Positions 16,014-62,933 of a stretch of 64,000 nt of DNA are shown one piece after another (the first letter of the stretch is position 1; each line of letters opens with the position of its first letter). Position numbers and translations under genes: made by a program. The DNA is from Nitrosopumilus sp. Its GTDB lineage: Archaea; Thermoproteota; Nitrososphaeria; Nitrososphaerales; Nitrosopumilaceae. Under the pieces are notes generated by a model. The model searched no databases. It worked only from the letters and a program-made list of their open reading frames with translations, and was not told the DNA's origin. The stretch covers positions 1,760,001 through 1,824,000 of the forward strand of contig OZ243974.1 of assembly GCA_965214775.1 (NCBI GenBank). The letters run 5' to 3'.

Positions 16014-16123
16014 GCTGCAAAGTCAACCTATACCAGGAGGTCTTTCCAGAACACATGTCGTGGGCCTGCCCAGACATCCGGCCACAGCTGCAAAGTCAAC
16101 CTATACCAGGAGGTCTTTCCAGA
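16014..16123. repeat. perfect 37-bp direct repeat flanking a 36-bp unique insert
   Basis: GCTGCAAAGTCAACCTATACCAGGAGGTCTTTCCAGA at 16014-16050 and 16087-16123. Confidence 0.95.
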
Positions 16124-16422
16124 TGTCAAGTGAGCCGATCAGGAAAATCGCGATGGTGCGCTGCAACACCTGCGATGGTGACTATGCCAAAGACGAATGG
16201 TCCGAGGCCTACTCCAGCTGTAAAAACAAGGGGCATGATCTGCACCCCTACACGCGGAGGGTAAGGAGAGATGGGGGCTCGCAGTACTGCCAGACGTGCG
16301 GCACTTGGATCAATCTCGCTGATCCGTTTGATACCAAAAAGCACGACGGGCACGGTCTTGGGGTTCGTCCTTGCCCGCTACGATTCTCTAGCGGCAGAGA
16401 GCATTATTTTTTCCATATGTGA
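16123..16422 (+). CDS. small Zn-finger protein
   Basis: GGAGGT RBS, then MSSEPIRK; CNTC...C...H and CQTC...H..H. Confidence 0.6.
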   Translation: MSSEPIRKIAMVRCNTCDGDYAKDEWSEAYSSCKNKGHDLHPYTRRVRRDGGSQYCQTCGTWINLADPFDTKKHDGHGLGVRPCPLRFSSGREHYFFHM

Positions 16423-16978: not shown

Positions 16979-18571
16979 GTGACATCACTTACGTTCTACG
17001 GAGGAATAAATGAGATCGGCGGCACCAAGATACTCGTCGAGGACAAGGGGACCCGGGTGTTCCTTGACTTTGGGATGCAGATGGGCAAGGTAAACGAATA
17101 CTTTGCAGAGTTTGCCAACCCCAGAAAGCTTGCAGGCATGGGGGATATGTTCGAGTTCAACCTGCTGCCAGACATCAAGGGGTAAGAGTTTACCCCTCAG
17201 GCTGTACTGCTGGCCGGAGCCTTCATGGTCACGCCTGCCACGTCGTATCTTGGGGGGTAAACTCTTACCATCAAGGGGATATACCGCAGGGACTATTCAA
17301 GGCACATGGGATACGGGGACCACAATCAGGAGACGTCGATAGACGGGGTCCTGTTGTCCCATGCCCACGTGGATCACTGCGCCTACATACACTACCTGAG
17401 ACCGGAGATCCCCGTGTACTGCTCGGACGCAAGCAAGCTGATAATGCAGTGCTTCCAGGACACGGGAGGGGGCGAGGAGTACATCACGTACAAGGAGGAC
17501 TTCAGGACGTACAAGAACCGCAATGGCGGGATAAGCAGAGCAAAGTCAGACAAGCATAGGGAGGAGGTCCCGAGAAACATCAAGACAATCGGCCCCTCAA
17601 GGCAGCTGAATCTGGACTCGATCTCAGTAGAGTCCATCCCGATCGATCACTCGCTGCCGGGCGTCTACGGGTTCATAATACACACGTCCGAAGGCAGTAT
17701 CGGATATACGGCAGACATCAGGTTCCACGGGAGGCATCGAGAATACAGCCGGAAATTCGTGGCCAGGTGTGGTGCCGAGGATTTGGACTATCTATTGTGT
17801 GAAGGTACTAGGATAGACAAGAGTGACAGCAACACCGAGTCTGACGTAGAGAAGAGCGTGACTGACGTGATCAACCGGACCGAGGAGATGGTCGTCTGCA
17901 CGTATCCTACGAGGGATCTGGACAGGATGCTGTCGTTCTACAATGCCGCCAAGGCAACGGGGCGCGACCTGGTGATAGACACAAAGCAGGCCTACCTGCT
18001 AAAGCTGTTCCAGACCTCAGACAAATGGAGGGGCGAGTATCCGTCACCGACGGATCCCAACATCAAGGTGTTCATGTCCAGAAAATCATGGGGACTGCTG
18101 GACAAGGACAGGAAAGTCTGGCCGGCAAACCAGATCCAGGCAGACTACAGGGGATGGGAGCGAGAGTTCTTGGACTATCCAAACTATGTGGATTACAGGG
18201 ACGTCAGAAAGGATCAGAAAAAATTCATCTTTTACTGCTCGGACTTTCAGCTGCAGAACTTGATTGACGTGAGGCCAGAGGAGGGATCCGGATATGTCCG
18301 GTCGTCCACGGAGCCGTTCAACGACGAGATGAAGCTGGACCAGGATCGTGTCAAGCGCTGGCTGGTTCACTTTGGACTGCTCTCCGGAGACAAAAAGTGG
18401 ACGACCGCCCACGTCTCGGGGCACGGCACCCTCGACCAGATCAAGCGCGTCATCGACGGCTCCTCGCCGGATAAGCTGATCCCGATACACACAGAGAAAG
18501 CCGACGAGTTCCACAAATTGCACGGCAATGTCAGACGGGTCAGCCTCGGCAAGAGACTCGAGATCGTTTGA
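16979..18571 (+). pseudogene. MBL/beta-CASP (RNase J-like) nuclease interrupted by a MITE
   Basis: GGINEIGG, DFG, SHAHVDH, DHS, ADIRFHG, HVSGH and PIHTE motifs; both parts in the same frame. Confidence 0.88.
17182..17268. mobile_element. MITE family F (IS66-derived)
   Basis: IR GTAAGAGTTTACCCC; 9-bp TSD CATCAAGGG; relatives at about 18594-18680, 22041-22130, 28670-28760, 43695-43785 and 62844-62933. Confidence 0.92.
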
Positions 18572-22040: not shown

Positions 22041-22130
22041 CTACGAGTTTACCCCTTAGGCGTCACTGGTGTCTGGAGCCTTCATGATCACGCCTGCCAC
22101 ACCGTATCTCAGGTGAGGGGTAAACTCGTA
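22041..22130. mobile_element. MITE family F
   Basis: TACGAGTTTACCCC...GGGGTAAACTCGTA. Confidence 0.85.
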
Positions 22131-28565: not shown

Positions 28566-29301
28566 ATGGAAACCAAATCAAAACTAGCGGACATGTACCA
28601 CACCGCAGAGGAGATCATCAACAATTATCCAAAATACAAGGAACATTTCTTGGAGTGGCTGGAATACTTGTACGAGTTTATCCCTTAGGCGTCACTGCTG
28701 TCTGGAACCTTCATGATCACGCCTGACCCGCCGTATCTCAGGTGAGGGATAAACTCCTACGGAATACTTCCCTAGTCCGTTAAAGACCACATACAACGGC
28801 ACGGGCAACATATACTTCAAATTCGGCTCCGGTTCTACCGTAATGCGGTTTAACGGGTGGTCTGACTATGCCGTACCGGATCCCATCCTGAACAGGATCG
28901 AGGCCATAAAGAGGGCGCTGGAGTTTGCCCGTACCGACGAATTCATGCTGGACAGGTGCGTCATCGACGTGCCGGACAGATCCGAGGAGGACAAACCGCG
29001 GTACGTCTGTCTCAAGCAGGTGGCATCTACCCCGTTCTGGAAGGTGGACGGGATATCGTGCAGCAGCGGCCACGGCGTGCTGATATACGTGGATGCACTG
29101 GACGGGAGGACCGTCTGGTTTAAGGGTGATGGCGAAAGTGCCTCCGGCAAGAAATACAGGCAATCACTACTTGACGATCAAGGCGTCTGGTTTTTGGAGG
29201 GAGATGACATCGTGTTTGCCAAGGACTGGCCGATGGTACATAGACGAGACTCACTGGCTTTTGGAGGACCAGATAAGGAGATAGGAATCATGACCAACTA
29301 A
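28566..29301 (+). pseudogene. hypothetical protein split by MITE F (28670-28760)
   Basis: 9-bp TSD GGAATACTT; removal joins METKSKLAD...WLEYF to ORF 28843-29301. Confidence 0.75.
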
Positions 29302-43694: not shown

Positions 43695-43785
43695 GTACGA
43701 GTTTACCCCTTAGGCGACACTACTGACTGGAGTCTTTATGATCACGCCTGCCACGCCGTATGTCAGGTGAGGGGTAAACTCGTAC
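43695..43785. mobile_element. MITE family F
   Basis: 9-bp TSD ATTCAAAAT. Confidence 0.92.
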
Positions 43786-54805: not shown

Positions 54806-55396
54806 CTATGATCCTTCCAGGTCTTCAATTGCCTTGATCATCTCCTCGATTGGTGGATTCTGGCCCAGTTGTATACATCTAAGGTCGTTCTCCTCACACC
54901 CTACCGCGTTTTCCCTGTCTTCTGTGACCAGAATCATTCCGTGCTTCTCGGCGTATTTCAGGACAGAAAAGTCGGATCTGAGAGGGAGCCCCTTGAAGCG
55001 TAACTTTCTCACGCTCTGCACCTCATATCCCCGCTCTGCCAGCCTCGAATCATACCCGTCGTACATCTCGTCTACCAAGATTGCCGTCTTTGACGTTCTG
55101 GCCGGCCCTTGCCTTACCTTTATTTTGAAACCGGCTATAGTTGCCACGACCGTAGTGAATACAATGATGGCTGTGCCGATTGTGACCTGACCCCATCCCC
55201 ACTCCCTGATGGCTTCAGAAAGGTTCTGCGCGTTGCCGGTATCCGTCGTCCCTGTATGGCCGATTCCCAGCCCTGCACTGAACAGTTCCAGAGAAAACCC
55301 GTTGGCAGTCATGACCGCCCCAAACGCAACCAAGGCAGTCGCTATCACCTGCAGGATGACGAGATGCTTCTGGAACCGTTGCTCTGCTTCATTCAT
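54806..55396 (-). CDS. two-TM protein fused to a DUF5615/Mut7-C PIN-like domain
   Basis: ILVDEM...SDFSVLKYA...ILVTED. Confidence 0.75.
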   Translation of the reverse strand: MNEAEQRFQKHLVILQVIATALVAFGAVMTANGFSLELFSAGLGIGHTGTTDTGNAQNLSEAIREWGWGQVTIGTAIIVFTTVVATIAGFKIKVRQGPARTSKTAILVDEMYDGYDSRLAERGYEVQSVRKLRFKGLPLRSDFSVLKYAEKHGMILVTEDRENAVGCEENDLRCIQLGQNPPIEEMIKAIEDLEGS

Positions 55397-55444
55397 GGCC
55401 TAACCACGTACCCATGTCTATTTTAACGTGGTTTGGCAGGCGGC

Positions 55445-55552
55445 CTTCCCAGAAGCTTCAGTTTCCCCGGTTTTTACAGCTTGGTCCTCAGGGCGGGCTG
55501 GTTCTAGGCTCAAAACTTCCCAGAAGCTTCAGTTTCCCCGGTTTTTACAGCT
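55445..55552. repeat. perfect 37-bp direct repeat flanking a 34-bp unique insert
   Basis: CTTCCCAGAAGCTTCAGTTTCCCCGGTTTTTACAGCT at 55445-55481 and 55516-55552. Confidence 0.95.
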
Positions 55553-55801
55553 GCGACACCACTTGGCGTTGCCGTATTTTTCCCTGATTTGGCTTTCCCT
55601 GTCATGCCTGCAATGATAGTAAGCAGAGTTTGCCGACTCCGGTTTTAACAGATTCATAAATTCTGTGTTAAGGTGTCCGCATCTGCGATGATGTATTTTG
55701 CTTCTTGATATCGGTTTTCTGACTATCAGCACGATATCCATAGGCGAGATCTCGTCAAACTGCTGCCTGCCTGTGATTTCATTCAATCCCATCCACCCCA
55801 T
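55529..55801 (-). CDS. small Zn-binding hypothetical protein
   Basis: IHHRRC...WCRSC. Confidence 0.6.
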   Translation of the reverse strand: MGWMGLNEITGRQQFDEISPMDIVLIVRKPISRSKIHHRRCGHLNTEFMNLLKPESANSAYYHCRHDRESQIREKYGNAKWCRSCKNRGN

Positions 55802-56047
55802 GCCTTCTGAGGCTGCCCGACCCTGTCTGCAGGAATAGCACCAATCATCTTCACCATGCCAATTTCATGTTGGCATAAAAACACGTGTCTGGCATGATCA
55901 TGCGCAGGCCGAATGCCGGGATTTTTATAATACCGCCTCCAATATATCGTGAGTTCGCTCCTTGCGTCCTTGGTTTCGATCAGGATTGCAGGCCCCGCCG
56001 GGCATTATGCATGTGCCCGTTTTGCGAAGGCGGGGAGCTTTTTCCTT

Positions 56048-56121
56048 GGGGGTGTAGTTTAGACTGGATAGAATGCCAGATTCGCAACTGGAGATTGAGG
56101 GTTCGAATCCCTCCATCCCCT
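56048..56121 (+). tRNA. tRNA-like gene or pseudo-tRNA with irregular anticodon arm (CGC-like)
   Basis: GGGGGTG/CATCCCC acceptor, D arm, GAGGG-TTCGAAT-CCCTC T arm; anticodon arm CCAG-ATTCGCAA-CTGG. Confidence 0.7.
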
Positions 56122-56921: not shown

Positions 56922-58604
56922 ATCCGGCGGCCCAGGGCCGTGCGATGCACGCTCCCTCTATCCCGCACCACTTTTCTGAACACACAAATACTTGAACGGA
57001 TTCAGTTTGATGGTTGACTGACTGGGGCCTGGGGGTGTTCACCATGATATCCATAATAGACTTTATGCGTAATCGGCCCATCTGATCTAAAAATACGACA
57101 CAATAGATCATTATTTGCACACCAACAACCCTAAAGATCTGTATGATTCCCTAACTGTATGGGCTCAAATGACAAGACTCTCCAAGCATTTCAAGCGTTA
57201 CAAGCGCAACACGAGATGCTAGTCGAGCAACACGAGATGCTAGTCGAGCAACACGAGCAGGTATCCAAGCAAAACAAACAGATGTCCAAGCAAAACGAGC
57301 GTATGAGGAAGCAGCTTGCGTTTGAGGACTCGTTGTGGCAGTCCGAAGAAAACAAGACAAAAAGAGTCGTGCGCGGCGGGACGCCTCTGCGGATGCACGC
57401 AATCGAGGTTGCAGACGGCATAATCGGCGATCCGGTGCGCCTTCGCAACGTCACGGGATGCACAAAGGAGTCATTTGAGATCATACTGGAGCGCTTTACG
57501 GAAGAAGTCATGGACGACGAGGACAGACCCCTGTTCTGGGAGGACGACGTAAGAGGCGGCGATGCCGGAAACCGGTGCAAGCTGTACATCAGGCACGCGC
57601 TGCTTGCAGTACTCATGAGCATAAGGACCAAGGCAACGCAGCATCATCTGGCCGCAACGTTTGACGTCGACCAGTCCACAATGTCCAGGTACCTCCGGTA
57701 CGGTGCCGTGTTACTGCGCCAGATCCTGCCTGCCTCCGAAAAGCTAACAAGCATCATCTGCAAGACCCCGGCAGGCAAGCTGGAGGAGGTGCTGATCCCA
57801 AAAAAGACGCTCCTGATTGACGGCACCCTGACTCCGGTAGACAGGCCCGGGGACAGGACCGCAAGAAAGACCAGATACTCGGGAAGAAAAAAGCGGCACA
57901 TGTTCAACACGATAATTACCTCGAACCTGGACGGCCTCATACTGCACTGCGGCAAGACTGTGGACGGAAGCGTCAACGACAAGGGCGTGATGAACGCAGG
58001 GGGCGGCCCGGACTTTGGAAGGCACACCGGATCAATGAGGAATGCAAAAAACGCAGACGATCCGGAAGAGGCGTTTGTGATTTACAGCGACCTGGGATTT
58101 GAGGGCATTCAAAAGATGCTTCCGGGCGCCATACACAGGCAGCCCCCAAAGAAGCCCAGGGACGGGGATCTTACTGCAACACAAAAGAGGCGCCGCAAGC
58201 AGATAAGCAGGGTTCGCGTCAGGGTGGAGCACCACATAGGGCGGCTCAAAAGATATGGCATTCTTACCATGCCGTTTGGCGGAACTGCCAAGGATCTCAA
58301 TTATTTCATGCAGATAATCACGGGTCTTGAGAACCTCAAGACGATGTTGAAAAGGAAAAAATACTATGGCCAGCTGCTGCAGCAGCTGCATCTGCTGCCA
58401 GACACATGACATACGGCGGTACGGACCGCCATTCTTTCTGACTTGTCAAAGGGGCACATTGCCGTGCTGCATGGTTGCGCACGTTCTTTTGGCGCAACTG
58501 GCTTTTACGTGCGTCATGACACGAGATGCATGCGGTAATTTGATCCGATCAGCGCATTTGCGTTTGGAAAAGCCTACGGAATTTTTAATCACGGTCGATT
58601 ACGC

Positions 58605-60063
58605 TAGTTTGTTGCATAACTCCGACTAGAGCCAAGTCAGTCCGCCCGGATCACTACTGGCACCAGGTTCCTACACGGCAGCCACCGCCTCTGCTATCCA
58701 CTTGTTGTACAGCCATATCCTCAGCTTTACTTCCTGCACTATATTGGACCACTTGAGGGCCATTACGCATTCGCCGAACATACGCTTTATGGCCGATATC
58801 ACGATCTCGACGATCCATCTGCTGCCAAAGCCGACCGTGCTCTTCCAGTACCGCAGGTTCTCCTGTCTTTCCTCCTTTGAGAGATCACCCACAGGCACCT
58901 CGGGGCCGCCCCCGAGCTGCCATCGCACCAGCCGGCCCCACTTGTCGCCGGTGCCCTTGCCCTTTGCATTGCAACTTGTCAAAAGCCGTATGAGTGGTTT
59001 TATGCCGCGTTTGTGGCACTCGGCTACGTTTTTCCTTGAGCCGTATGCGCCGTCTGCAAGCAGGATCTTTCCCGGTATATCTGGATTCGCGCCGGTGCCG
59101 AGTACAGCCAGCGGCGATGTCCCGTCTGCAAGCATGTTGGGGATCTTGACTGTATCCGCGCTGTCGGTGCGGCTCTGCTCCTCTTCCTTCTTGATGTTCT
59201 TGACTGTATCCGCGCTGTCGGTGCGGCTCTGCTCCTCTTCCTTCTTGATGTTCTTGACTGTATCCGCGCTGTCGGTGCGGCTCTGCTCCTCTTCCTTCTT
59301 GATGTTCTTGACTGTATCCGCGCTGTCGGTGCGGCTCTGCTCCTCTTCCTTCTTGATGTTCTTGACTGCATCCGCGCTGTCGGTGCGGCTCTGCTCCTCT
59401 TCCTCCTCTTCCTTCTTGATGTTCTTGACTGCATCCTCAAGCAGTGCCGGCAGTTCCGTGCTGTCGCCGATTGCATCACTTGTGACAGATACTGCCAGCA
59501 CCTGCTTGGTGTCTGCATCGACCATCAGGTGCATCTTGACAAATCCGCGCCTTACCTTCCATTTCTTGCATATCCACTCGCCCCGGTTGTGCTGCTTGAG
59601 GCCAGTGGCATCGGCTATCATGACCAGGTTGCGGGACTTGTCGCGCACCGTGATTATGTTCTCTGCAATGTCGACGTCAAGCTTCTGTATCCTTCTGAAT
59701 ATCGTGGTGTAACACGGCGAGTCCGCACCCTTTAGCATCTCCCCGAGCATACCTGACAGCTGCCTGTACTTTAGCATGAATGCGGTCCTGAGGGCGGCTG
59801 CGGCCATTATCATGCCTTCTGCATACAGGAACGGGGCGCCCTCCTTGTGGCGGTTGGCAGCCTTGAGATCCTTCTCCCAGTCCGGGTTGTACTTGACGAC
59901 CAGGCCTGCCCCTCTCTCTACGTACTTTGCATTATCCGTGCGTGTCAATGTATACAATACGAGGCATCCTCATGATCCATTACTTTTTCGGTCAGAATTA
60001 GTTGATCATTCCGGTGATTTTCAGTAAAGTTTCAAATTTTAGGCAGGGTTATGCAACAAACTA
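58605..60063 (-). mobile_element. IS5-family (IS903-like) element, transposase 58671-59957
   Basis: IR TAGTTTGTTGCATAAC; 8-bp TSD GATTACGC; ADATGLK, KMHL, ADGAY, RWIVE. Confidence 0.93.
59145..59435 (-). repeat. 54-bp (18-aa) tandem repeat, about 5 copies, inside the transposase
   Basis: VKNIKKEEEQSRTDSADT units. Confidence 0.95.
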
Positions 60064-62843: not shown

Positions 62844-62933
62844 GTACGAGTTTACCCCTTGGACATCCTGGTGTCTGGAGCCTTTATGATCACGCCTGTC
62901 ATGCCATATCTCCGGTGAGGGGCAAACTCACAC
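62844..62933. mobile_element. MITE family F
   Basis: GTACGAGTTTACCCC...GGGGCAAACTCACAC. Confidence 0.8.

Follow-up and report, generated by a model that had tools for sequence, protein, structure and literature searches.

Off-target spacer integration has been described for the type I-E Cas1-Cas2 of Escherichia coli, where it produced 'neo-CRISPR' loci (Nivala, Shipman and Church 2018, Nat Microbiol; cited in 10.1101/148544, PMC7054753, PMC6698737 and PMC9456107). According to the passages of these reports that deal with it, the E. coli events needed overproduced Cas1-Cas2 and were rare in the population, and for natural off-target integration one of the four texts (10.1101/148544, PMC7054753, PMC6698737 or PMC9456107) speaks, in the passage concerned, of 'circumstantial evidence ... 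in two other species'. In vitro, Cas1-Cas2 of Pyrococcus furiosus integrates into plasmid substrates at non-CRISPR sites that resemble the repeat and the leader-repeat junction, as stated in PMC6698737. The ectopic acquisition of Streptococcus thermophilus, as outlined in PMC7999890, takes place away from the leader-proximal repeat and uses genuine repeats inside the array. Standalone or ectopic repeats such as CreTA (PMC9458426 and 10.1101/2023.03.03.530964) are repeat-like elements outside arrays; in sequence they resemble a genuine repeat, and Cas effectors bind them. In the literature searched, supplements aside, we found no account of off-target events by the dozen in a natural genome.

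We analyzed a stretch of 64,000 nucleotides (the window; C1:1760001-1824000) from a one-contig genome of 2,833,656 bp. A copy-insert-copy unit at window positions 55445-55552 is very probably the footprint of natural off-target, that is non-canonical, spacer integration by the CRISPR adaptation machinery of this genome. The unit has in common with the E. coli neo-CRISPR loci, as far as the excerpted accounts describe them, a spacer-sized insert, a duplication as long as a repeat, a chromosomal location away from all arrays and a site choice influenced by sequence. Unlike in E. coli, the events have become fixed in the genome of an archaeon in nature, follow a ruler of 36-37 bp, occur alongside a type I-B operon with Cas4 and recur in sister species. 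As in P. furiosus, the end motif of the units resembles repeat termini and the leader-repeat junction, whereas the sites here are chromosomal, inherited and filtered by selection. Integration in S. thermophilus likewise bypasses the leader-proximal repeat, but the target duplicated here is ordinary genomic DNA, and the duplicated 37-mer lacks the likeness to a real repeat that characterizes CreTA-type elements, although both stand outside arrays.

The unit consists of an exact 37-nt target-site copy (55445..55481), a spacer-sized insert of 34 nt (55482..55515) and the second copy (55516..55552), none of them assigned to a strand, and thus agrees in every position with the 37-bp duplication around 34 bp that an earlier note had read from the sequence. 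The copies start 71 nt apart (37+34). With up to 3 mismatches allowed, the 37-mer occurs at only these 2 sites in the window, and the chance expectation of such a match was 0.00 in 100 dinucleotide-preserving shuffles. Copy 2 takes in the final 7 codons (SCKNRGN) and the stop codon of the ORF at 55529..55801 (minus strand, 90 aa, no family in a Pfam search) together with the 13 nt that follow, which bears out the overlap with the gene end proposed before. The reading frame is therefore unchanged, the insert sits just past the stop and the coding sequence is unaltered by the insertion. A tRNA gene (Rfam RF00005, 52 bits) lies at window 56048-56121 on the plus strand, about 250 nt from this ORF.

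A second unit, 39 kb away, had likewise been noted, and its duplication has indeed the same length: copy 1 (16014..16050, exact 37 nt, beginning GCTGCAAA), a 36-nt insert (16051..16086) and copy 2 (16087..16123, 37 nt), again unstranded. Neither insert has a second copy in the genome. The 36-nt insert had no exact match in viral_contigs, and a 30-nt core of the insert at 55482-55515 had none in viral_contigs, genome_contigs or metagenome_contigs, a search by exact matching that misses diverged protospacers. At 16195-16235 and 55529-55560, both window units are adjoined by small Cys-rich ORFs with the common peptide SCKN(K/R)G, the Cys-Lys codons of which supply the target motif GCTGYAAA.

The two window units belong to a genome-wide family. 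A scan for all exact direct repeats within 300 nt returned the two CRISPR arrays of the genome and, sharply clustered in size, isolated units in which 35-39 nt are duplicated around an insert of 33-39 nt. Once mismatches were allowed, the cluster comprised 37 isolated units (duplication 34-39 nt, insert 32-39 nt, period 70-76 nt with a mode of 73), including one doubtful member at C1:934396, which has a period of 76 and an insert like a MITE interior. The copies are identical in 32 units and differ by one mismatch in the other 5. Duplication lengths are sharply peaked at 36-37 nt and not broadly spread (34 nt, 1 unit; 35, 5; 36, 15; 37, 9; 38, 4; 39, 3), as the suggestion of ruler-based integration outside arrays had implied, and the modal unit combines a 36-nt duplication with an insert of 36-38 nt at a period of 73-74. 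The size classes on either side are almost empty: among periods that are not multiples of three, chosen as not being coding repeats, 5, 13 and 8 units were counted at 71, 73 and 74, as compared to 0-2 at 64, 65, 67, 68, 70, 76 and 77. Overall, the genome carries about one unit per 77 kb, and the nearest two are 664 nt apart. Three units fall within 1.7 kb (C1:1266242-1267946), in or beside a 562-aa ORF without Pfam family, and this cluster may be an integration hotspot.

For 14 of the 37 units, which lie in multicopy sequence, a one-copy, insert-free version of the site could be aligned across the junction to other genomic copies, for example over 337 of 337 nt ungapped at 95% or over 336 nt at 98.5%. 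These empty paralogous sites identify the units as insertions with target duplication. An enrichment of units in repeats was considered and rejected, as multicopy sequence surrounds 14/37 units vs 445/1500 random windows; the genome itself is very repeat-rich, 445 of 1500 random 336-nt windows having a paralogous copy, 336 of these at >=85% identity. Among relatives, an empty counterpart of the 55445 site was sought in vain, with 0 of 30 matching window 55000-56000 at the DNA level, and in run X7, from a related strain, no contig covers 55418-55667. When the target sites were rebuilt, 15 of 37 fell within ORF interiors vs 383 of 600 random positions (p = 0.008), a depletion expected of a biological process under purifying selection and not of an artefact.

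The inserts point to spacer-like capture of DNA from elsewhere. Full-length matches to another chromosomal place, with 0-2 mismatches, were found for 10 of the 37 inserts, and two more matched over 31-35 nt; in the self-matching inserts homology ends exactly at the insert borders, and several of the sources are IS copies. The protospacer check advised in the earlier note thus yielded sources for a part of the family and none for the 55445 insert, and its PAM counterpart remained negative: the 11 self-protospacers that were oriented share no consistent PAM, TTN lying upstream of about 5 as judged by eye. That the inserts might be remnants of one IS is refuted, since every insert is different and some reproduce other loci, including IS copies, exactly and at spacer size. 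An insertion sequence or MITE with target-site duplication was rejected on the same diversity of inserts, together with the 34-nt insert at 55482-55515, for which no inverted repeat was reported. One unit's insert and its source (C1:2776510-2776547 and 2615428-2615464) have in common an 11-nt stretch equal to the end of a repeat of the larger array, which could be chance or a repeat relic. Independently of the units, the window holds five copies of an 89-nt MITE-like family with terminal inverted repeats of about ACGAGTTTACCCC ... GGGGTAAACTCGT (17183-17271, 22042-22130, 28671-28759, 43696-43784 and 62844-62932), a 54-nt tandem repeat at 59144-59404 (4.8 copies, 99% matches, with similar arrays elsewhere in the genome) and two adjoining 21-nt tandem repeats at 57206-57300, at the 5' end of the DDE transposase ORF 57159-58409.

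The 55445 unit is also present in sequencing reads. In read-built unitigs from run X1 (study P1) and run X5 (study P2), a 94-nt unitig (55452-55545) bridges copy, insert and copy, and the 37-mer forms a separate unitig at about twice the flanking depth. For X1, depths were 81 and 89.9 in the flanks, 68.1 in the insert piece and 160 in the 37-mer; for X5, the corresponding values were 11.1 and 10.4, 10.4 and 21.5. In a graph with k = 31, a separate 37-mer unitig of about twofold depth is the outcome of a true copy-insert-copy structure. Being present in the reads, the structure was not made by the assembler, and we regard it as extremely improbable that a sequencing or assembly artefact has simulated a copy-insert-copy absent from the cells. 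The perfect identity of the copies in 32 of the 37 units would suit such an artefact, and X1 and/or X5, as the best-matching runs, may be the source of this very assembly. It is opposed by the bridging unitigs from two studies with their doubled 37-mer depth, by the avoidance of ORF interiors, by inserts that are exact copies of other loci and by similar units in three related genomes (G014, G066 and G051). The lower insert depth in X1 (68 vs 81-90) could mean that some cells lack the insert, but this is only a hint.

Two canonical CRISPR arrays are present in this genome, the ribosomal proteins of which are archaeal and in which mcrA was not found. Array A1 (C1:2420114-2425007) has 68 repeats of 37 nt with spacers of 29-57 nt, mostly 34-36, and periods mostly of 71-73; array A2 (C1:1977219-1978062) has 12 repeats of 36 nt with spacers of 36-39 nt. 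The single Cas1 match in the genome (336 aa) is located in a type I-B operon beside A1, cas7-cas5-cas3-cas6b-cas1-cas2-cas4, in which all frames are open, whereas no cas genes lie within about 7 kb of the orphan A2. A2 is followed by IS66, IS5 and IS110 transposase genes. The duplication and insert sizes of the units lie inside the ranges of these arrays, and their modal geometry matches that of A2 and not that of the cas-adjacent A1. The 55445 unit, with its period of 71, is among the few that match A1 exactly, its combination of 37+34 being shown by 16 of A1's 67 spacers, which are 34 nt long. A casposase, raised before as an alternative integrase, is not indicated because the only Cas1 lies in the cas operon, and a casposon was rejected on this ground and on the insert size of 34 nt.

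The unit is not itself a CRISPR array, as its 37-mer occurs only twice in the window and encloses one insert only. It might still have arisen by off-target integration and now serve as a one-spacer mini-CRISPR, as a source of regulatory RNA or as the seed of a new array. Read-through from the ORF upstream would transcribe copy, spacer and copy, and in E. coli, arrays are reported to have arisen spontaneously out of off-target events, as cited in 10.1101/148544 and PMC6698737. Nevertheless, we consider such a present-day role very improbable. The 37-mer is unlike either canonical repeat, and even at a tolerance of 7 mismatches neither repeat is found in the genome outside the two arrays, which leaves no known handle for Cas6b. 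A second insert or a third copy is seen in none of the 37 units. The proposal of dispersed single-spacer acquisition is supported by this family of one-insert units, whereas its companion, an early stage of array formation, has no support. Moreover, matches to the genome outside the arrays were found for 0 of the 78 array spacers, as compared to 10 of the 37 inserts (Fisher p = 5e-6). This contrast is in keeping with self-derived spacers surviving only at places that yield no crRNA, and their tolerance in units but not in arrays argues that the units do not guide interference. Because its duplicated 37-mer bears no relation to the genuine CRISPR repeats, the unit most likely persists as an inert scar from which no crRNA is processed.

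To characterize site choice, we examined the 74 ends of the 37 units. G is enriched at +1 (31 vs 17 expected, p = 5e-4) and GT at +1/+2 (16 vs 3.9 expected, p = 1e-6); further enriched positions are Y at +2, G at +4 and A at +6 to +8, and the flanks show G at -3, G or C at -2 and few A at -1. Three canonical repeat termini follow a common pattern (GTCGTAAT, GTTTCAAT and GCTTCAAT). A terminus score, G-Y-N-N-N-A-A-T, was derived from these canonical termini alone, with a threshold of >=3 at one end, and was reached by 26 of 37 units vs 30.7% of 100,000 random sites (p = 8e-7). The A1 leader ends ...GGCT before GTCGTAAT, and the symmetrised logo of the units mirrors these last leader and first repeat bases. 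An EM motif search scored 80.6 vs 44.7 +/- 4.6 in random controls, which had fewer restarts than the observed run. Comparing the sites to the first 10 nt of the repeats gave a weak signal for A1 (mean 5.24 vs 4.75) and none for A2; the shorter terminus motif is more telling than a 10-nt repeat likeness.

Both window units fit this genome-wide motif with the shared ends GCTGCAAA and GCTGTAAA (GCTGYAAA), as the earlier note had surmised, and the Cys-Lys coding of these bases is incidental. The unit at 16014 matches 6 of 6 positions of the derived motif. At 55445, where copy 2 read on the minus strand begins A-GCTGTAAA, the fit to the canonical-terminus motif is 4 of 5 after a 1-nt inward shift and 1-2 of 5 unshifted. 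This shift suggests that the true duplication may be 36 nt and the insert 35 nt.

We then asked how the units are distributed among relatives, comparing the first 396.2 kb of six same-genus genomes by one criterion, a sample that is small and consists of genomes kin to one another. Three cas1-bearing relatives, G066, G014 and G051, have 5, 6 and 2 isolated units in this segment, as compared to 0, 1 and 0 in G002, G018 and G010, which have no PF01867 match; seven equal parts of the present genome gave 3-6 units each under the same criterion. With relatives this few and related, the co-occurrence of units and cas1 is an association and not a test. G018, with its one unit, still has a small CRISPR array of five repeats with a 36-nt repeat (C1:252741-253030 of that genome), so that an adaptation module was probably present in it at one time. 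In G066, the sole cas1 is split by an exact 38-nt duplication with a 34-nt insert (G066:C1, about 1888134-1888243). Once the insert and one copy are excised, a frame of 337 aa reappears, which shares 52% identity with the Cas1 of the present genome over 326 residues. The integrase gene of this relative thus appears to have been struck by the same type of event.

These data also bear on whether a different process with a stagger of about 36 bp, either another integrase or a repair pathway capturing filler DNA at staggered breaks, has produced the units, their match to CRISPR geometry being a coincidence. Such a process could account for a modal geometry that differs from the only cas-adjacent array, for the lack of a clear PAM and for the one unit in 396 kb of the cas1-less G018. 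It would not predict that duplication and insert sizes stay within the ranges of the genome's own arrays, that unit ends mimic canonical repeat termini or that units track cas1 in the 6 sampled relatives, with G018 still having its small array. We therefore judge it very improbable and retain off-target spacer integration as the explanation.

The known Cas1-Cas2 reaction suggests how a unit would form. The integrase would carry a prespacer of about 34-35 nt and attack the two strands 36-37 bp apart at a mimic of a repeat terminus (G-Y-N-G-N-A-A-A/T), in an orientation that is so far presumed. Gap filling would then duplicate the 36-37 bp between the joints, giving copy, insert and copy. The type I-B Cas1-Cas2 with Cas4 is the likely integrase, as it is the only candidate present in the genome. 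Its array, A1, does not have the modal geometry of the units, and in G014 an A2-like repeat adjoins Cas2 and a Cas4-Cas1 fusion, a type of fusion of which the present genome shows no remnant. Given this mismatch and the missing fusion, we leave the maker of most units between two possibilities: either the I-B integrase behaves differently off target, for instance by using untrimmed prespacers, or a second module has recently been lost. Untrimmed prespacers would also account for the missing PAM.

Taken together, we think it on balance probable that off-target integration in this lineage is a pervasive and probably continuing mutational process, with one event fixed in roughly every 70-200 kb across four species that bear cas1, which scars genes, captures pieces of host IS elements and has knocked out cas1 in one sister species, and for which prespacers left untrimmed by Cas4 or a recently lost second integrase may be responsible. 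The mechanism is of a known kind; what deserves attention is how abundant the events are in nature and that one of them struck cas1 in a relative. For annotation, the units carry the warning that isolated 'two-repeat CRISPRs' of this type are scars and not arrays. They also offer a test bed for the birth of arrays by the off-target route, none having arisen here. The 37 clean events, together with the units of the sister species, supply a natural specificity logo for an archaeal integrase and a direct measure of the insertional cost of an adaptation module, the self-inactivation of cas1 included. If this reading is true, these genomes would document, under natural conditions, both the specificity of the integrase and the cost that CRISPR adaptation inflicts on the cell itself.
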